Virus record (IMG/VR): IMGVR_UViG_3300011102_000489
Coordinates: 1-33,160 of that record
Length of the DNA: 33,160 nucleotides
Reading direction: 5' to 3' (one strand)
Source: a virus
Taxonomy: Duplodnaviria; Caudoviricetes
The translations under genes were made by a program, and so were the position numbers. Shown here in pieces: positions 5,085 to 28,080 of the stretch (its first letter is position 1; each line of letters begins with the position of its first letter). The notes under the pieces are model-generated. The model did no database searches and was not told where the DNA came from. It worked only from the letters and a program-made list of their open reading frames with translations.

Positions 5085-5683
5085 TTGGTCACCTCTTTCT
5101 TGAGCAGCTGCTGCGACTGCTGTGCGATCTCGGCCCACTTCTCCATGCTCTGTGCGAGCGGGACCTCCATGACGCCAGGCTGCTTGCTCGGGTCGTTGTG
5201 GCCAGTACCCGGGGCGCGCTTCTCCGGCTGCAGCTTGCTCGCGAAGTACGGGGCGGCAGACTTGGCGGCCTCCATGCGGTCGGCGAACGTGGGCAGCACG
5301 ATGACTTCGATGATCTCCTGGGTCTCGCTGTCGTAGGCGAAGTGGTTGATCTGCTCGCCTCGCATCACAGCCAGCAGCCACTCGTGGGGCAGCATGCCAC
5401 TGGCACGGGCCTCTTCAACAGTCTGCGCGCTGATTCGTTCGCGTCGGTTGCGGAGCTTGGCGGTCTCCTTGCTCATGCCCTCCAAGGTGTTGGGATCTTC
5501 ACCACGCGGGCGCCGACCATTCGGCTGCTTCGGCTGTGCCCTGCGGGGAGGAGTCTTCCGGATCTTCGGTTGACGAGGGCGCTCGTTGGCCACGTACGAC
5601 GCTTCAACGGGCTTCGACACCTTGGCTCCGGGCTTTTGCGTGCGCACTGCGCTCGGCTTTGAGGTGGCGGGCTTATGTGACAT
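5081..5683 (-). CDS. terS: Terminase small subunit (putative)
   Basis: Translationally coupled directly upstream of terL; basic N-terminus and RMEAAKSAAPY helix of the type seen in small terminases. Start chosen at ATG 5683. Confidence 0.7.
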   Translation of the reverse strand: MSHKPATSKPSAVRTQKPGAKVSKPVEASYVANERPRQPKIRKTPPRRAQPKQPNGRRPRGEDPNTLEGMSKETAKLRNRRERISAQTVEEARASGMLPHEWLLAVMRGEQINHFAYDSETQEIIEVIVLPTFADRMEAAKSAAPYFASKLQPEKRAPGTGHNDPSKQPGVMEVPLAQSMEKWAEIAQQSQQLLKKEVTK

Positions 5684-5719
5684 GCGACTCGCTCTGTGCA
5701 CAGTTGTAGACGTGCGTGG

Positions 5720-5770
5720 ACTCTAAGGCGCATGAGACCCTATGAGAACAGGCCTGTGAATGTGATCACA
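5720..5770 (-). promoter_or_regulatory. Putative late promoter of the packaging operon, with upstream TGTGA-N6-TCACA dyad
   Basis: Minus strand CACAGGCCTG-TTCTCA-N17-TAGAGT; TGTGA(5755-5759)-N6-TCACA(5766-5770). Confidence 0.55.
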
Positions 5771-5886
5771 AAGTGAACGTCCCTGATGGCGAGGGTGATT
5801 CATTTTCTCGCGCGCGCGTCTTTCTGTGGGGCCGGTGACAATCATCAGGCCGAAGCTGCAAAGCTGCCGAAGGCAGTGAGCTGTGC

Positions 5887-6018
5887 TGTAGCAGTAACAG
5901 AAAAAGGGTAGCCCTATCTATTTACTATCTATCCTCTTCTTACTACTATTTCTTCTATTGAGAAGTAGGGGGCTAAAGAAGAAAAGAGAGGATGGTTCTT
6001 TTTCTGTATTCTGCTACA
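5887..6018. repeat. AT-rich imperfect inverted repeat at the strand switch (candidate ori or packaging site)
   Basis: TGTAGCAGTAACAGAAAAAG (5887-5906) vs CTTTTTCTGTATTCTGCTACA (5998-6018); the interior is pyrimidine-rich then purine-rich and much more AT-rich than the flanks. Confidence 0.6.
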
Positions 6019-6044
6019 TCACATTCTGCCTGAGGAGGTACGTC

Positions 6045-6554
6045 GTGAGCAATGAAATTGTGGAAGCGCTGGAGCGGATTTCCCGCGAGCTGATGGGCTC
6101 GAAGCGTCGCAAGCTCGAGCCTGAGTTCAAGCTGCTGAGTGACGCGCTTGGCCTAGATCCTTCGCTGACCAAGCATCTGAGTTGGCCACTGCCGTCGTGG
6201 CCGAAGCGCGGAGAGGCGGCGAGTTCGAAGGACGACGAGCTGCGTTACTTGGTGGACTTCGGTTACGGCGACCAGCCTGACCACCGCAACTACCTCGCCT
6301 CGTTCGAGGAGGTTCGACAGCTGCTGCGCTACACCAGGGACTCTTGCAAGGTCGCCTTTGGCATCGGTCGCGGCAAGGTCGATCGCACGCAGCGGCCTAC
6401 CCGCCTCGGCCCTTGCGTCATCCACCGTCTGCCGATGGCCGTCGACATTGAGAAGTACCCGGGCGCGTTGCGGCTGAGTGACCGCGAGCTGGAGCTCTTC
6501 CCGCCGGCCCGTCCGGACGGTCGCAAGACCTACGTCCGCGGCAACAAGTACTAA
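6045..6554 (+). CDS. Hypothetical protein (169 aa)
   Basis: GTG after strong SD CTGAGGAGGT; phage-like codon usage; ends in GNKY. Confidence 0.75.
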   Translation: MSNEIVEALERISRELMGSKRRKLEPEFKLLSDALGLDPSLTKHLSWPLPSWPKRGEAASSKDDELRYLVDFGYGDQPDHRNYLASFEEVRQLLRYTRDSCKVAFGIGRGKVDRTQRPTRLGPCVIHRLPMAVDIEKYPGALRLSDRELELFPPARPDGRKTYVRGNKY

Positions 6555-6596
6555 TTTCGCATGCCCTGAGAGGCTCTGGTCATGTTTTCGTTCAGG

Positions 6597-6626
6597 TTTA
6601 CGGCGAGACGTCGAACGCGCTAAATT
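6597..6626 (+). promoter_or_regulatory. Sigma70-like promoter
   Basis: TTTACG-N18-TAAATT, matching the TTTACR -35 class used elsewhere in the window. Confidence 0.45.
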
Positions 6627-6632
6627 AGCCTT

Positions 6633-6755
6633 CGTCGCCGCCCCGCCGCGTCGTTCCGCCTGCCGTCGTCCGAGCCGCTCCCCCGGCCGCGATGCCTGCA
6701 AAGCGATCACGCACCTCCTCAGCAAAGGCCGCGCGGGGCGGCGACTCCTTCTTTT
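6633..6755 (+). ncRNA. Candidate structured small RNA or leader with an anti-SD segment
   Basis: Perfect 13-bp closing stem GTCGCCGCCCCGC (6634-6646) / GCGGGGCGGCGAC (6733-6745) followed by TCCTTCTTTT; internal ACCTCCTCAGCAAA; begins just after a predicted -10. Confidence 0.5.
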
Positions 6756-6865
6756 GGACCCCGCAGCTGAGTGCGAGGTTCGAAGCCCGTGGTGACCCCA
6801 ACGCTGAGGAGCGGGCAGTGTAATTGCGCCGGTGTCACCAGGCGGCGCGCAGGTGGACGACAACT

Positions 6866-8974
6866 ATGGCAACCAAGCGGAAGCGCAAGAGCAAGAGCAA
6901 GAGCGCAAGTGCAGCTGTTGACCCACGCGCCTACGAGCTGGGTCTCGCGAAGCTCGAATCCTCCGGTCTGACTGAGGAGGACGCGAAAGAGCTGGGGATC
7001 GAATTCCTCTCACGCGAAGAGACGGCGGCGCTTGTCAAGACGAACGGCCCGCTCTGCGCGTTGAAGATCAACTACTTCAACCCGGTCGATGGGTCACCCC
7101 TCGAGGATTGGCCGAAGGCGCCGCCGTACTGGCGGTTGCGCTACCTCGAGCAGGGCCACGAATTCACTGACCAAGCGGACAAGAAGCCGCTGCGCTACGT
7201 GCAGCCGTTTGACACCGCGCCGGTCGCTTACTACCCGCGCAACCAAGACTGGTCCGAGCTGCTGGCCGAGCCGGCACCACTCATCATTACTGAGGGCGAG
7301 CTGAAGGCCGCCAAGGCGTGCAAGGAGGGCTTTCCCACCATCGGTCTCGGCGGCGTGGACTCCTTCGCAGCCAAGCGCATGGGCATCGTGTGGCTGAAGA
7401 GCCTCGACTTTCCCAACTGGGTGGGCAGGCACGTCTACATCTGCTTCGACTCGGACATGCGATCGAACCCCAACGTGCTTGGCGCCCTCGAGCGACTGGC
7501 CGAGGAGCTGGAGCGGCGTGGCGCGCATCCCTACGTGGTCATCTTGCCGGAGCTCGAGGGGCCGGGGACCAAGATCGGCCTCGACGACTTCCTCGTTCAC
7601 GAGCATGGCGGACCCGACGAGTTCGCCGCGTTGCTTTCCGAGGCAGAGCCGCTGGGCTTGTCGCGGGCGTTGTTCCACCTGAACGAGCGCTACGTGTACG
7701 TCGCCGACCCCGGCTTGATCGTCAACGACAAGACGAACGCGAAGCACTCGCCCGGCGCCTTCAAGGAGCACGTGGAGGCGCCAGCGGTGTTCATCGCCCG
7801 CGAGTTCGATCAGCAGGGAAACCTCAGGACGAAGACCACGTCGGCTGCTGCCGCGTGGATCAAGTGGCCGCTGCGCCGCGCCGTCGACAAGCTCACGTAT
7901 GCGCCAGGCAAGGACAAGTTCCTGAACAACGGCGTGACCATGTACAACATGTGGCAGGGCTGGGGCGTCGAGCCGCGCGAGGGCGACTGCTCGTTGTTCC
8001 TCGACCTTGTCGACCACCTGTTCACCGGCGCTGAACCCGGCGCGAAGGAGTGGTTCCTCAAGTGGTGCGCGTACCCGCTGCAGTACCCGGGCGTGAAGCT
8101 CTTCTCAGACGTGCTGATCTACGGCCGCAAGCACGGTACCGGCAAGTCGCTGATCGGCTACACCCTGGGTCGAATCTACGGCAAGAACTTCACGGAAATC
8201 AGGCAGAAGAACCTGCACGAGAACCATAACGAGTGGGCTGAGAACAAGCAGTTCGTCATGGGCGACGACATCACCGGGTCGAACAGGCGCGAGGACAACG
8301 ACCTGCTGAAGAACCTCGTCACGCAGCGTGAAATCCGCTTGAATCCGAAGTATATCCCGTCCTACACCGTGCCGGACGTGATCAACTACTTCTTCACGGC
8401 GAACAACCCCGACACCTTCTTCATGGATGACGACGACCGTCGCCACTTCATCCACGAGGTCAAGGTCGGCCCGCTGCCGGAGGAGTTCTATGTCGAGTAC
8501 GACCTGTGGCTCGACTCGGGCGGCGCGTCCGCGTTGTTCCACTACCTGCTGCATCTCGACACGAGCGACTTCAACCCGGCGGCACGTGCGTTCGAGACGC
8601 AGGCGAAGAAGCGCATGATCAGCGACACGCAGTCCGACCTCGGCGCGTGGGTGCGGCGCCTCATCGAGGATCCTGACTCGGTGCTGCGCGTCGGCAACGT
8701 GAAGCTCAAGAAGGACCTGTACTCGAACCGCGAGCTGCTGGAGCTCTACGACCCCGAGCGGCGAACAGGCACGACGGCGAACGGCCTGGGTCGCGAGCTG
8801 CGACGCGCAGGGATCGACATGGTCAACGAGGGCAAGACGGTTCGGCTGCCTGACGGCAGCGAGCGCCTGTACGCGGTGCGCAACGCAGAGCGTTGGATCC
8901 ACGCGAGCATCGATGAGGTGGTGCAGCATGTCGTGGGCGCGACGAAGCCGAAGGCCAAGGGCGCGAAGTACTAA
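6866..8974 (+). CDS. Primase-helicase (DUF3854/Toprim N-terminus plus SF3/D5-like helicase)
   Basis: Toprim motifs IITEGELKA, ICFDSD, KIGLDDFL; Walker A GRKHGTGKS, Walker B VMGDD, FTANN motif C, DDRR. Start ATG 6866 (702 aa). Confidence 0.9.
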   Translation: MATKRKRKSKSKSASAAVDPRAYELGLAKLESSGLTEEDAKELGIEFLSREETAALVKTNGPLCALKINYFNPVDGSPLEDWPKAPPYWRLRYLEQGHEFTDQADKKPLRYVQPFDTAPVAYYPRNQDWSELLAEPAPLIITEGELKAAKACKEGFPTIGLGGVDSFAAKRMGIVWLKSLDFPNWVGRHVYICFDSDMRSNPNVLGALERLAEELERRGAHPYVVILPELEGPGTKIGLDDFLVHEHGGPDEFAALLSEAEPLGLSRALFHLNERYVYVADPGLIVNDKTNAKHSPGAFKEHVEAPAVFIAREFDQQGNLRTKTTSAAAAWIKWPLRRAVDKLTYAPGKDKFLNNGVTMYNMWQGWGVEPREGDCSLFLDLVDHLFTGAEPGAKEWFLKWCAYPLQYPGVKLFSDVLIYGRKHGTGKSLIGYTLGRIYGKNFTEIRQKNLHENHNEWAENKQFVMGDDITGSNRREDNDLLKNLVTQREIRLNPKYIPSYTVPDVINYFFTANNPDTFFMDDDDRRHFIHEVKVGPLPEEFYVEYDLWLDSGGASALFHYLLHLDTSDFNPAARAFETQAKKRMISDTQSDLGAWVRRLIEDPDSVLRVGNVKLKKDLYSNRELLELYDPERRTGTTANGLGRELRRAGIDMVNEGKTVRLPDGSERLYAVRNAERWIHASIDEVVQHVVGATKPKAKGAKY

Positions 8975-9011
8975 ATTCACTATTTACAACGCTTTCGAGA
9001 AGCTCTCTAAT
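8972..9011 (+). promoter_or_regulatory. Sigma70-like early promoter with operator-like motif
   Basis: TAAATT-cactat-TTACAA; -35 TTTACA-N17-TCTAAT. Confidence 0.6.
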
Positions 9012-9064
9012 GGGCCTCGATTCAACGGAGCCGGCCGAACCGGTATATACTGAGGAGAAGTGTC

Positions 9065-9378: not shown

Positions 9379-9678
<300 letters not shown>

Positions 9679-10511: not shown

Positions 10512-10543
10512 CTCACCAACCTAACTGCCGAGGAGGGCTCATC

Positions 10544-11933: not shown

Positions 11934-11970
11934 TTGCACATTTACAAGACCTGTCGGGCCGGGCTACGAT
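11930..11970 (+). promoter_or_regulatory. Sigma70-like promoter with dyad operator
   Basis: GTAATT-gcacat-TTACAA; TTTACA-N18-TACGAT; downstream RBS TTGCTGAGGAGG. Confidence 0.6.
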
Positions 11971-12003
11971 GCAGCCTGGTCCATCTTGCTGAGGAGGTTC
12001 ACA

Positions 12004-14758: not shown

Positions 14759-14794
14759 TTGACAGTTTACAAATCCGTGAAGTTGTGGTATAAT
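14754..14794 (+). promoter_or_regulatory. Strong sigma70 promoter with dyad operator
   Basis: TGTAA-N8-TTACA overlapping TTTACA-N17-TATAAT with extended -10 TG. Confidence 0.8.
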
Positions 14795-14849
14795 GCTCCT
14801 GTCGGCCACTGGAGTCGACGACGTTCTATCACAGCTGAGGAGATGCAAC

Positions 14850-15147: not shown

Positions 15148-15187
15148 GTAAGTCACTATTTTCGAGCTAGCCAGCTCGTAGTAGAGT
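15148..15187 (+). promoter_or_regulatory. Possible promoter of the replication operon
   Basis: GTAAGT-cactat-TTTCGA (degenerate operator); TTTTCG-N17-TAGAGT. Confidence 0.4.
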
Positions 15188-15235
15188 AGGACTGCCCGGC
15201 AATTCCGCTGGGCACATCATGCTGAGGAGAAGCAC

Positions 15236-15286
15236 ATGATCAAGCAGTTGTTGAAGCTGATGCTCGGCCCCATGCAGAGGCGCTGA
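15236..15286 (+). CDS. 16-aa micropeptide or leader peptide
   Basis: Strong RBS TGCTGAGGAG followed by MIKQLLKLMLGPMQRR*. Confidence 0.45.
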   Translation: MIKQLLKLMLGPMQRR

Positions 15287-20044: not shown

Positions 20045-20444
20045 GACCGACATCGAGGAGTGGGTCGTCAAAGAGGCGGAAGCCATCGGCATCCCCTCTT
20101 TAAAGCTCAACCTCAAGGGCAATCGTGGCTGGCCTGACCGGATCTTCTTGATCGCCGGCGGCCGGCCATTGTTCATTGAGTTCAAGCGGCCCGGGGAAGA
20201 GCCACGTAAGCTGCAACTGCAGCGCCACCGCATCCTGAGGAAACTAGGCTATGAGATCCAAGTCCATGACACCCGTGAAGAAGCTCTCGCGGGCCTCAAA
20301 GCAGCCCAAGCACGTGGAGGGCGAGGTGCTGCCTCCGCTGGTCATTCCGCAGAAGTGGAACCCGCACGCCTACATGAAGAAGGCCGTCAAGTTCCTGCTC
20401 GAGCACGCGTGCGCCGCGCTGTTCCTCGATCCAGGACTCGGTAA
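20031..20444 (+). CDS. VRR-NUC domain endonuclease
   Basis: LETDIE...GWPDRIF...FIEFKRPG...LQ motif set. Confidence 0.88.
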   Translation: MRILETDIEEWVVKEAEAIGIPSLKLNLKGNRGWPDRIFLIAGGRPLFIEFKRPGEEPRKLQLQRHRILRKLGYEIQVHDTREEALAGLKAAQARGGRGAASAGHSAEVEPARLHEEGRQVPARARVRRAVPRSRTR

Positions 20445-21859: not shown

Positions 21860-21901
21860 TTGTAATTACCTGGTTACAAGTCGGTGCGATCACACTAGAA
21901 T
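21860..21901 (+). promoter_or_regulatory. Sigma70-like promoter with perfect dyad operator
   Basis: TTGTAA-N8-TTACAA; GTTACA-N17-TAGAAT; leader hairpin followed by TGCTGAGGAG. Confidence 0.7.
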
Positions 21902-21944
21902 GGACTCACGGTCGAGCTACGACCGCACTGCTGAGGAGACCGCT

Positions 21945-22317: not shown

Positions 22318-22346
22318 TTTACGCGCGGTACGTCGTGCCGTACTAT
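22318..22346 (+). promoter_or_regulatory. Sigma70-like promoter
   Basis: TTTACG-N17-TACTAT, followed by a leader hairpin and TTTGCTGAGGA RBS. Confidence 0.6.
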
Positions 22347-22415
22347 CAACATAGTACGACGCGTCGTGTCGTGCTATCAACCACGCTGCACAAGACCTTT
22401 GCTGAGGAAACCACT

Positions 22416-23063
22416 ATGAAGACCGTGATCAAGGGCGGTGATGCCGTCAAGACCGTTGCTCGCCGTGACTCCGCCACCGCGATCCTGCGCAAGCTCGGGA
22501 TCAAGTCCAGCGACTACAACTTGTTCATCATGCAGACCGCCGACGGCCGCTACGCGGTGGCCGAGGACAAGGCGCAGGAATACTTGCAGGCACAGCTCCG
22601 CAAGGTCGCCAACGAAGAGGTGCCGCAGAAGCAGCTCAAGGGCCGCACCAAGAAGGAGGCGGACAGCAACCAGATCAAGCGGCCGTCCGTCGCGGGCGTG
22701 ATCCGCAAGCTCATCCTCGACGGCCTCGACAACAAGGCGATCCACGAGATCATGAAGCGCGACTTCGGCCACGACGAGGACAAGGCACACTACCCCGCGT
22801 GGTATCGCTCGCAGATGCGCCGCGAGGGCTTGATCGAGCGTCCGACCAAGGCGGCGAAGTCCGAGCTGAAGAAGCACGTCGCCAACCCCGCCGTCAAGGA
22901 GAAGAAGGCCAAGGTCAAGAAGATCAAGGCCTCGAAGAAGCGCGTCGTCAAGCGCAAGACCGCGCTGGCGCAGCACAACATCAAAGCGACGCTCGCCGCG
23001 TCGCTGAAGACCGGCCACACCGAAGAGGCGGTGGCTCCCTACTCCCACATTCAGGTGAAGTGA
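22416..23063 (+). CDS. Basic putative DNA-binding protein (215 aa)
   Basis: Helical domain VIRKLILDG...DFG...YPAWYRSQMRREG plus Lys-rich tail; paralogous to the C-terminus of 23419-24156. Confidence 0.75.
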   Translation: MKTVIKGGDAVKTVARRDSATAILRKLGIKSSDYNLFIMQTADGRYAVAEDKAQEYLQAQLRKVANEEVPQKQLKGRTKKEADSNQIKRPSVAGVIRKLILDGLDNKAIHEIMKRDFGHDEDKAHYPAWYRSQMRREGLIERPTKAAKSELKKHVANPAVKEKKAKVKKIKASKKRVVKRKTALAQHNIKATLAASLKTGHTEEAVAPYSHIQVK

Positions 23064-23236
23064 TGCTCATCGAAGTCAGCTACAGGAACGGCCACAAGGA
23101 GCGTCGCATCTGCGGCGACCACGACACGCTGGTCTCCGTCGTCGAGAAGTGCGAGGCCGACAACCAGTCGAAGATCCGGACCATCAGGGTGATCAAGCGC
23201 AGTGAGCATTCGCATCGAGGAAACGACGAAGGGTGA
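23063..23236 (+). CDS. Hypothetical protein (57 aa)
   Basis: TGATG coupling; MLIEVSYRNGHKERRICG... Confidence 0.6.
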   Translation: MLIEVSYRNGHKERRICGDHDTLVSVVEKCEADNQSKIRTIRVIKRSEHSHRGNDEG

Positions 23237-23654
23237 CGTCGAGCAGTACACCTTGCACGTGAACGACTTCCCAGCCGCGCACGTGCAGGTGCTGCCCCAC
23301 GGGGTCGTCCTGAACTGGGCCGTGTACGGTCCGCTAAACTGGCCTGAGGCCAAGCTCATGCTCGAGGGTCTTCTTGAGCTCGGGCTGTTGGCCGACAAAC
23401 TGACGCTGAGGAGTCCACATGAAAAAGTCCGCCGCCAAAAAGCCCGCCAAAAAGTCGTCCGCGAAGACGACGAAGATGACGCGCCACACGCTCCCCTCGA
23501 CATCCGCTACGGCCGCCACAACCGCGGCGCCGACCAAGGCCGCCCCGGCGCCGAGGCAGCCCGTAGCTCAGGTGTGCTGCGACCGCAACCGGCGGACGTG
23601 TATCCTGCTGGAAAGAAGCGAGTCGTGCGTAAAGTACGTCGCGCTCGACGTTGA
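23202..23654 (+). CDS. Hypothetical protein (3' part overlaps the next gene)
   Basis: The first ~70 codons have good codon bias and fill an otherwise empty gap; SD is weak. Confidence 0.5.
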   Translation: MSIRIEETTKGDVEQYTLHVNDFPAAHVQVLPHGVVLNWAVYGPLNWPEAKLMLEGLLELGLLADKLTLRSPHEKVRRQKARQKVVREDDEDDAPHAPLDIRYGRHNRGADQGRPGAEAARSSGVLRPQPADVYPAGKKRVVRKVRRARR

Positions 23655-24156
23655 GAACGGGCTCGACGTCACCAGCGCAGACCCCCGAGATTTCGACCGC
23701 GACTATAGGCCGATGGTCGACTACCCTGTCGAGCGAGCCGCCAAGCTGTACGTCGAGTACAGCCGCGGCCTCGGCGCCACCGAGCAGGTCATGCGCATGC
23801 TGGCCAAGCTCACCACCGTCAGCAACGAGGACATTGAAATGGCAACGAAGAAGAAGGCTGCCCGCGCGGCAGCGCCGGTTAAGACCGCCAAGAAGGCGAC
23901 CGCCGAGAAGCCGGCGAAGACGGCCAAGGGCAAGGCCGGCAAGGCGCCGGCCGAGAAGAAGGAGCGCACGCCGCGCGGCCCGACCGCCGCCTCGCGCTTC
24001 CAGGAGCTGATCATGGAGGGCAAGAAGACCGACGACCAGATCTTCGCCATCGTGCAGAAGGAATTCGGCCTGGACGACTCCAAGCGCTCCTACGTCAAGT
24101 GGTACCGCAACTACCTGACCAAGCAGGGCAAGAACCCGCCGGCGCCGAAGGAGTAA
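23419..24156 (+). CDS. Lys/Ala-rich putative DNA-binding protein (245 aa)
   Basis: RBS GCTGAGGAG; histone-like linkers; C-terminal FQELIMEG...EFG...YVKWYRNYLTKQG domain. Confidence 0.8.
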   Translation: MKKSAAKKPAKKSSAKTTKMTRHTLPSTSATAATTAAPTKAAPAPRQPVAQVCCDRNRRTCILLERSESCVKYVALDVENGLDVTSADPRDFDRDYRPMVDYPVERAAKLYVEYSRGLGATEQVMRMLAKLTTVSNEDIEMATKKKAARAAAPVKTAKKATAEKPAKTAKGKAGKAPAEKKERTPRGPTAASRFQELIMEGKKTDDQIFAIVQKEFGLDDSKRSYVKWYRNYLTKQGKNPPAPKE

Positions 24157-24230: not shown

Positions 24231-25103
24231 ATGCCCATCAGCCGCAAGGTCGAGCGCGACACCCGTGACTACGACACCACCCAGCTGCGCGAAGCCGGCC
24301 ACGGCCGCAGCCTGCACCGCGACTACAGTGGCCACTTCTGGCGCTGGAGCTTCGCGCGCAACTTCATCACCGCCAAGGACAACGTGCTCGAGATCGGCTG
24401 CGGCGAGGACCGCCCGCTGAGCAGGATCCTGACCGGCGGCGCGGCGCCCCACGTCAACAAGTACGTCGGCGTCGACCTGAACAAGCTGAAGCAGTCCAAC
24501 AACAAGCGCCTCACGTTCCTCGGTGAGTTCAACTTCGTCGAACGCCACAAGGAGCTGTTCAAGCTCGACCCGGCGTTCAAGGAAGGCTTCGACGTGGTCG
24601 TGCACTACGAGGTCATCGAGCACATGAAGGTCGAGCACGGCCGTAAGCTGCTCAAGGCCGCCTTCGACGCCCTGAAGCCGGGCGGCGTGATGCTCATGTC
24701 GACGCCGTGTTACGACGGCAGGCGGCACGCGGCGAACCACATCCACGAGTACTTCGTGGACGAGCTCCAGAAGGAGACCGAGAAAGCCGGGTTCGTGGTC
24801 GAGCGCCGCTACGGCGTGTTCATGGACATCAAGCACATCGGCAAGCAGAAGCCCGAGAAGGCCGGCACCGAGGCGGGCGAGACGGACCCGAGGCTGCATG
24901 ACGCCATCAAGCTGGTCCGAGCCGGTCTGGCCGAGTACTTCGACAACGACGCGATCAGCTGCATCTTCGCGCCGCTGTACCCCAACCACGCCCGCAACAA
25001 CCTCTGGGTGTGCCGCAAGCCGCTGGCCGCCAAGGCCGCCAAGACGACCGCCAAGACGACCGCGGCCAAGGCCGCCAAGAAGACCACTACCAAGAAGAGC
25101 TGA
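24231..25103 (+). CDS. Class I SAM-dependent methyltransferase (small-molecule/O-methyltransferase type)
   Basis: VLEIGCG, VGVD, FDVVVHYEVIEHM, LKPGGVMLMSTP; no DPPY or PC DNA-MTase motif; Lys/Ala/Thr-rich C-terminal tail. Confidence 0.9.
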   Translation: MPISRKVERDTRDYDTTQLREAGHGRSLHRDYSGHFWRWSFARNFITAKDNVLEIGCGEDRPLSRILTGGAAPHVNKYVGVDLNKLKQSNNKRLTFLGEFNFVERHKELFKLDPAFKEGFDVVVHYEVIEHMKVEHGRKLLKAAFDALKPGGVMLMSTPCYDGRRHAANHIHEYFVDELQKETEKAGFVVERRYGVFMDIKHIGKQKPEKAGTEAGETDPRLHDAIKLVRAGLAEYFDNDAISCIFAPLYPNHARNNLWVCRKPLAAKAAKTTAKTTAAKAAKKTTTKKS

Positions 25104-25114
25104 GGAGAAGGTCG

Positions 25115-28036: not shown

Positions 28037-28080
28037 CGACCTCGCCGCCGTAGTCGTCGACCCACTGAGGAGGTTGCATC

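Follow-up and report, generated by a model that had tools for sequence, protein, structure and literature searches.

A predicted small RNA in front of the primase gene of AXL3-like phages and its complementary tag on early ribosome-binding sites

Genome setting and architecture of the element

The analysed stretch of 33,160 nucleotides (IMG/VR record IMGVR_UViG_3300011102_000489, hereafter the window) comprises most of the genome of a siphophage. Between positions 5900 and 9000 it shares 81–82% identity with Stenotrophomonas phage AXL3 and Pseudoxanthomonas phage PW916, and in sequence the phage is AXL3/PW916-like; primase relatives at 57–60% identity in the genome collections lie on contigs of 34–49 kb. 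The head genes are transcribed leftward, starting at about 5700, the rightward arm with the replication and early genes occupies 6045–28608, and the lysis and tail genes enter from the right side of the window. No tRNA or tmRNA was found in a scan of the whole window. Between the divergent arms, at 5906–6005, there is an A+T-rich pyrimidine tract against a purine tract, with a long imperfect hairpin possible, which is a possible replication origin; long purine runs also occur up to 1.5 kb upstream of the RNA described here in 16 of 61 loci. A GACGAG repeat at 9563–9678 gives an Asp/Glu run in the homolog of AXL3 gp62, a possible DNA mimic.

The RNA element sits between the first early gene and the gene for a DUF3854/DUF5906 primase-helicase. 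Its parts and the adjoining primase leader are as follows.

6597 to 6626, plus strand: sigma70-type promoter of the RNA and primase, TTTACG-18-TAAATT, recognised by pattern
6633 to 6755, plus strand: predicted small RNA of about 120 nt, fold z −3.25, kept in AXL3, PW916 and 70 of 77 IMG/VR loci
6634 to 6646, plus strand: closing stem, 5' arm, perfectly paired, with one compensatory pair in AXL3 and covariation in the family
6713 to 6728, plus strand: pairing segment (seed), invariant core CCTCAGC at 6717–6723, unpaired probability 0.79
6733 to 6745, plus strand: closing stem, 3' arm, perfect reverse complement of 6634–6646
6746 to 6755, plus strand: pyrimidine tail, 7 T in 10, likely a leaky terminator or processing site
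6756 to 6781, plus strand: leader site 1, hairpin with loop GCTGAG at 6766–6771
6803 to 6811, plus strand: leader site 2, GCTGAGGAG, where an extended duplex with the RNA arm starts in relatives
6866 to 8974, plus strand: primase-helicase (DUF3854 + DUF5906), from domain matches

An earlier note on this DNA had described the promoter-like element, the 13-bp perfect closing stem and the U-rich tail, and all three were found as it placed them. About 85 nt lie between the arms of the stem, and the tail is shorter than intrinsic terminators usually have; a consensus promoter/terminator scan of the window missed both the promoter and the terminator of the element. The accessibility of the loop, which the note wished to see checked, was seen in structure prediction, the seed being open in the window fold and in the family (median 0.77; above 0.7 in 43 of 62 sequences). 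The loop had also been called an anti-Shine-Dalgarno. A CCUCC extension of that kind is indeed present, but it is lineage-specific, and the conserved core is CCUCAGC, which is not an anti-Shine-Dalgarno as such; the 16S rRNA tail used in comparing seed and tag is an assumed one.

Tagged ribosome-binding sites in the window

The motif CTGAGGAG occurs 13 times in the window, while 1.6 ± 1.2 copies are expected and none of 100 shuffles reached 13. Twelve copies are on the plus strand, and the single minus-strand copy is the loop of the element itself; the split is alike in AXL3 (11 copies on the early strand, with the loop as the only one in reverse) and PW916 (15 and 1). Three of the 12 plus-strand copies lie away from gene starts, at 6804 in the primase leader and at 6972 and 12334 inside genes. 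Seven sigma70-like promoters were recognised by pattern in the window, all on the plus strand; one precedes the element and each of the other six is followed by CTGAGG after 19–56 nt. The ribosome-binding sites (RBSs) that carry the tag are the following.

6030 to 6039, plus strand: tagged RBS of gene 6045–6554 (AXL3 gp65 homolog), a 14-nt match in AXL3
8983 to 9057, plus strand: early promoter 8983–9011, tagged RBS 9050–9057, gene 9065
11941 to 11998, plus strand: early promoter 11941–11970, tagged RBS 11986–11998, gene 12004
14766 to 14842, plus strand: early promoter 14766–14794, tagged RBS 14834–14842, gene 14850
15159 to 15229, plus strand: early promoter 15159–15187, tagged RBS 15220–15229, 16-codon ORF 15236–15286
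20235 to 20241, plus strand: weaker 7-nt tag at the RBS of SNF2-type helicase gene 20251, kept in AXL3 and PW916
21873 to 21938, plus strand: early promoter 21873–21901, tagged RBS 21929–21938, gene 21945
22318 to 22408, plus strand: early promoter 22318–22346, tagged RBS 22396–22408, gene 22416
23405 to 23413, plus strand: tagged RBS of gene 23419 (Lys/Ala-rich protein)
25099 to 25107, plus strand: tagged RBS of nucleotide pyrophosphohydrolase gene 25115, overlapping the stop codon of the preceding gene
28065 to 28074, plus strand: tagged RBS of dCMP deaminase gene 28081

The runs of complementarity to the loop that the earlier note reported were recovered with 13 nt at 11986, 10 nt at 6030, 15220, 21929 and 28065, 9 nt at 14834, 23405 and 25099, and 8 nt at 9050; the site it gave at 22398 is also real, but the run there is 13 nt long (22396–22408) and not 11. 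The 16-codon ORF at 15236–15286 stands ahead of the genes for DNA polymerase, a Cas4-like nuclease and a helicase. It resembles the start of AXL3 gp45 and precedes a DUF7307-like gene, as if the body of a gene had been deleted and its cassette of promoter and tagged RBS kept. Moreover, the RBS of the AXL3 gp57 homolog (10526–10537) reads TGCCGAGGAGG, one base off the AXL3/PW916 tag there, a possible loss of control in the window phage. The region 22416–24156 encodes two related Lys/Ala-rich proteins, both with a tagged RBS, and the tagged start of AXL3 gp32 lies about 150 nt upstream of the annotated one, which has been set too far downstream.

Conservation of the predicted RNA, its tags and the primase leader

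Single-protein and exact-DNA scans of viral contigs found no relatives, whereas a scan of IMG/VR with a primase alignment did; 80 loci were fetched, and 77 were usable since three had no upstream DNA. CTCAGC inside a closing stem, at most 900 nt upstream of the primase gene, is present in 70 of these 77 loci, so the segment is conserved among viral relatives. One locus (L054) was dropped as doubtful and one with a variant seed (L082) was added. Promoter, tail, read-through fold, leader-site and minus-frame analyses used 61 distinct sequences, including the window, AXL3 and PW916, while target-site, seed-flank and gene-cluster analyses used 62. The loci are not independent: 36 of the 62 fall in one cluster and pooled counts overstate independence, a problem of kinship that tests on cluster representatives address in part. 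Among 47 aligned sequences with a mean identity of 41%, only the seven columns of CCTCAGC and one tail base are invariant. All seven consensus pairs of the stem change on both sides, and 90% of the cells pair against 29–48% in slid controls, a result that is favoured by the choice of the stem ends in a stem search. A similar promoter stands ahead of the stem in 55 of the 61 distinct loci, and in 42 of those 55 the stem starts 7–8 nt after an independent −10 box; at least four T in the 10 nt after the stem are found in 45 of 61.

In a metagenome collection, 78 loci were found, 65 were examined, 63 had enough DNA and 34 had the element, which gave 15 new sequences, one of them doubtful. The element spans a wide primase clade with repeated absences, according to a quick tree of 65 rows that shows clustering only. 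The covariance model used (R1) was weak and missed three loci that have the element (L059, L060 and L067); thus ‘lacking’ means here that the element was not found near the primase gene, its absence not being proven. Two loci (L135 and L151) that were scored as lacking in the metagenome count carry the seed. An unbiased search of 25 loci found no other seed–tag pair in the 18 without the canonical element, and recovered the seed in four loci that have it. One locus (L057:1466-1541) has a stem-closed element before the primase gene in which the loop is a variant one; no site downstream matches it, and the element may be a decayed copy. Taken together, the element appears to be a real, conserved and apparently uncatalogued RNA family, and the comparative evidence for pairing is strong.

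The distribution of the tags follows that of the RNA. With genes in the relatives called by a simple caller of our own, an RBS match of at least 8 nt to the RNA of the same locus was found at 106 of 935 same-strand and 10 of 531 opposite-strand genes, and GCT precedes an RBS-placed GAGG at 90/377 on the same strand and 5/107 on the other. The tag lies 5–70 nt behind a promoter in 98 of 119 cases on the same strand and 3 of 36 on the opposite strand (background 4%), and in none of 28 cases in 17 loci where the RNA was not found. Likewise, RBS-placed GCTGAGG was counted at 89/370 in loci with the element against 2/85 in loci without it. In the metagenome collection, 13 of 21 same-strand and 0 of 8 opposite-strand promoters are followed by the tag, with 1 of 25 in loci scored as lacking; this exception is a locus so scored that carries the seed. 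The targets head transcription units: the tag is at 89 of 366 same-strand genes after a gap of at least 40 nt and at 12 of 535 without such a gap (opposite strand, 2 of 115). For the annotated genes of AXL3, it is at 9 of 39 early and 0 of 26 late genes (p 0.009, with one start moved upstream). In one Pseudoxanthomonas genome, CTG stands at 11 of 429 AGGAG-ATG sites, and the possibility that the tag is a host RBS convention was rejected by this rarity. The enrichment at early over late or host RBSs that the earlier note asked about is therefore present.

The tagged genes are varied: the 116 sites fall into 59 protein clusters. A DUF7307-like gene is the most frequent (15 loci), and its homolog in the window (15292) follows the tagged 16-codon ORF that heads the polymerase block. 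Furthermore, the flanks of the seed covary with those of the tags, as the stem pairs covary with each other; in 16 cluster representatives with 59 sites, the RNA of the same locus matched better than permuted ones (p 0.005 on the left and 0.003 on the right). For example, the RNA has GTCCTCAGC and the tags GCTGAGGAC in L060, CTCAGCC and GGCTGAG in L061, and GATCCTCAG and CTGAGGATC in L072. At the first base 3' of the core, the tags mostly have A even where the RNA predicts G (10 vs 6), and the variant seed of L082 has no tagged RBS in about 3 kb downstream. Many early leaders (e.g. L030, L031 and L060) have a small hairpin starting with CACGGTC immediately ahead of the tag, and the −35 box is preceded by an A/T-rich motif; pairing of either to the RNA was not supported. 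A second pairing element on the 5' side of the loop was not significant for early-gene leaders (p 0.13 and 0.07).

The primase leader, which follows the RNA immediately and which the earlier note had missed, is the target that recurs most constantly. Leader site 1 is present in 56 of 61 loci, and in 44 of these 56 it forms a hairpin loop on a stem of at least 5 bp, compared with 89 of 856 control sites elsewhere. Pairing of the leader with the RNA is predicted in two to three separate segments, the duplex at site 2 being continued in separate segments by the RNA arm 5' of the seed. Without the seed, this arm pairs with its own leader at −24.2 kcal/mol against −18.9 kcal/mol for permuted leaders (20 representatives, with G+C content as a confounder), and own-leader pairing exceeds that with the shuffled own leader at z < −2 in 33 of 58 loci. 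In the window, AXL3 and PW916, the extended pairing is not above that of shuffled leaders (z −1.0, −0.6 and −0.8) and only the 9-nt site 2 stands out, while in some relatives (L012, L017, L068 and L081) the predicted duplex covers the RBS or start of the primase gene. In L082, one base of the seed is changed and site 2 is changed alongside. The equilibrium fold of the read-through transcript of the window loses the closing stem and pairs its 5' arm with the primase RBS region; in folds of this kind for 61 loci, which take account of neither pseudoknots nor co-transcriptional order, the seed finds a downstream partner in 36 and the closing stem persists in 21. This makes a cis component in primase control likely, on these models. 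Site 1 could be either a docking site for the free RNA or a cis hold of the seed that keeps the fresh read-through mRNA translatable. In five loci (L005, L031, L040, L044 and L003), an extra gene or stretch of 184–547 nt is inserted between the RNA leader and the primase gene, with both leader sites kept in front.

Proposed mode of action and comparison with known systems

The element is likely a small RNA with a loop complementary to the tag on early RBSs, and we consider it probable that this RNA is made early and represses early translation in trans. We base this on what sequence comparison shows, namely the architecture of the element, the covariation of its stem, the position of the tag after early promoters, the lack of it in loci where no RNA was found, and seed flanks that covary with the tags and the primase leader. 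The host sigma70 polymerase would transcribe the RNA together with the early genes; most transcripts would stop at the tail, some reading through into the primase gene, and a short stable RNA would accumulate. CCUCAGC(AA) may then dock on (UU)GCUGAGG and cover the GAGG of the Shine-Dalgarno sequence, by which the first gene of each early unit would be shut. At the primase leader, the RNA may first kiss the loop of site 1 or bind site 2, and then zip along further leader segments, in many relatives over the RBS or start codon of the primase gene. In this way a phage for which no repressor is known would control its early and replication proteins by a feedback that is delayed and depends on dose. 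The earlier note's idea of one trans-acting RNA for a regulon of early genes is thus supported by the conservation, the stem covariation, the predicted accessibility of the seed, the seed–tag covariation and the enrichment at early genes, but the early-to-late switch it proposed gives way to delayed feedback, since the RNA shares the promoter type of its targets and would be made early, not late.

The RNA might also pair with the tags in trans and act mainly by premature termination or mRNA cleavage, not by occlusion of the ribosome, with the premature termination caused by the P4 CI RNA as a model. Lying 19–56 nt behind promoters, the tags would be reachable on the nascent RNA, and the primase leader has two tandem sites; however, the tags stand at a fixed Shine-Dalgarno distance from start codons and are also found on promoterless internal genes (L060 and L065), and we regard such an output as unlikely. 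A cis-only 5' leader switch of the primase mRNA, with the tags recognised by a protein or multiplied as promoter cassettes were duplicated, would agree with the position of the element, which is always directly before the primase gene or a gene inserted ahead of it, with the likeness of the promoter cassettes within a genome and with the downstream pairing of the seed in 36 of 61 read-through folds. It is quite unlikely in view of tag flanks that track the RNA flanks between lineages, the lack of tags where the RNA was not found, and the tagging of unrelated genes (59 protein clusters, 116 sites).

Activation or stabilisation of early mRNAs, with no repression, is very unlikely: the RNA is predicted to be made together with its targets, which would suit it, but the duplex covers the GAGG of the Shine-Dalgarno sequence in every lineage and the primase RBS or start in many relatives. 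That the loop is merely the RBS of a minus-strand gene, or due to chance, we hold to be extremely improbable. A 185-codon minus-strand frame does follow the reverse motif in the window, but it has 22 codons in AXL3 and PW916, a frame of at least 40 codons follows in only 5 of 61 loci, and the covarying stem, the promoter and the tail would be left unexplained; this candidate was rejected.

Rfam gave no hit in the window region 5400–7200 at E values up to 10 and none at the gathering score in 14 related loci, and neither that region nor these loci matched the covariance model of the C4 antisense RNA (which we take to be RF01695). The CI RNA of satellite phage P4 lies in the leader of an operon holding the primase gene, pairs with the same transcript and acts after a delay; it undergoes processing, terminates transcription of its own operon and is not known to act on other units. 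The RNA described here is likewise encoded in the leader of a primase operon with sites in the same transcript, but no likeness to CI in sequence or in Rfam was found. Bacterial anti-Shine-Dalgarno small RNAs such as Cuckoo/CcsR and RsaE present a single-stranded C-rich seed to many RBS targets. They are host RNAs with a generic anti-Shine-Dalgarno, whereas the core here is mostly outside the Shine-Dalgarno sequence and is matched by a phage-private tag. Of the features of trans-acting small RNAs, both an unpaired conserved seed in a covarying structure and distant covarying targets are present.

The C4 RNA of phages P1 and P7 has three stem-loops with two pairing loops, is cut from a precursor by RNase P, partly occludes RBSs in the transcript downstream and serves temperate-phage immunity (PMC5320573). 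The likeness is clear in a small structured phage RNA with a loop on RBSs, downstream targets and a specificity that changes with the RNA, and the duplex is predicted to reach over the RBS or start of the primase gene in many relatives, although weakly in the window itself. On the other hand, the stem here starts 7–8 nt after the −10 box (42 of 55 loci, with start sites predicted), which leaves no room for the 5' leader of an RNase P precursor; and one seed reaches many separate early units. As to the two pairing loops of C4, the primase leader is predicted to pair in two to three segments, while a second element for the early-gene leaders was not significant. Moreover, C4 belongs to a temperate immunity region with an antirepressor, whereas AXL3 is described as having neither lysogeny genes nor stable lysogens, with pseudolysogeny left as a possibility (PMC7504290). 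The RNA works like C4, but does not share its Rfam model, its precursor or its temperate context. T4 RegB is an endoribonuclease that inactivates early phage mRNAs at GGAG motifs (PMC1702504, PMC3014915). The predicted outcome here is the same, but RegB is a protein nuclease, does not act by base pairing and is not known to use a private tag covarying with an RNA. The phage RNAs sar, OOP, aQ and C4 control one gene or operon, mostly in temperate phages (PMC12197685, PMC5320573), and the cited part of the phage small RNA review covers single-gene antisense RNAs and 24B_1, and nothing class-wide (PMC12197685). No description of this RNA family was found in the literature searched, though closed journals or catalogue supplements could hold one, perhaps as an unnamed entry; the seed was not found in six supplementary files of PMC10690425.

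The tag also recalls the start-associated sequences (SAS) of cluster K mycobacteriophages and cluster EF Microbacterium phages, described as an over-conserved RBS motif of non-structural genes after intergenic gaps, often behind promoters (PMC3203893, PMC7302621, PMC11373665). Like SAS, the tag is an over-conserved one-strand RBS motif at non-structural genes after gaps (89/366 vs 12/535); it does not match the 13-bp cluster K consensus, so that it works like SAS with another sequence, and SAS has no pairing partner known from these sources. Four cluster K phages have a single reverse copy of SAS, which in Anaya (L118:34850-34902) and CrimD (L121:33815-33867) forms the loop of a hairpin, fully open and about 100 nt after a −10 box. 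Among 13 aligned phages, however, the loop is complementary in 2, drifted and CU-rich in 4 and missing from 7, while SAS itself shows no change in any of the five that were checked among those 11 (TM4, Pixie, Ekdilam, Syra333 and LeMond); thus the RNA–tag idea does not account for SAS as a whole. Cluster K mycobacteriophages keep, close to the right end of the genome, a structured non-coding locus that follows a TAGACT −10 box and that most records leave unannotated.

The tag system gives one concrete answer, though not for all cluster K SAS, to the role of over-conserved RBS motifs in phages. Class-wide shut-off of early mRNAs is familiar from proteins such as T4 RegB; in the present family a single predicted RNA corresponds to an entire class of promoters as well as to the primase gene, and over a wide primase clade RNA and tags covary and are missing together. 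With two cultured members, AXL3 and PW916, the proposal is directly testable, and the seed–tag pair, being rare in host RBSs, would make a compact orthogonal translation switch. A slow cycle and pseudolysogeny-like behaviour have been reported for AXL3. With about even chances, in our judgement, this virulent phage family may run its early programme by an RNA repressor instead of a protein repressor, with a private RBS tag after every early promoter and one early-made RNA that reads all the tags and the two-site primase leader, whose build-up would set the timing and dose of replication and possibly also account for the slow cycle and pseudolysogeny-like behaviour of AXL3 and the exclusion of kin with the same seed.
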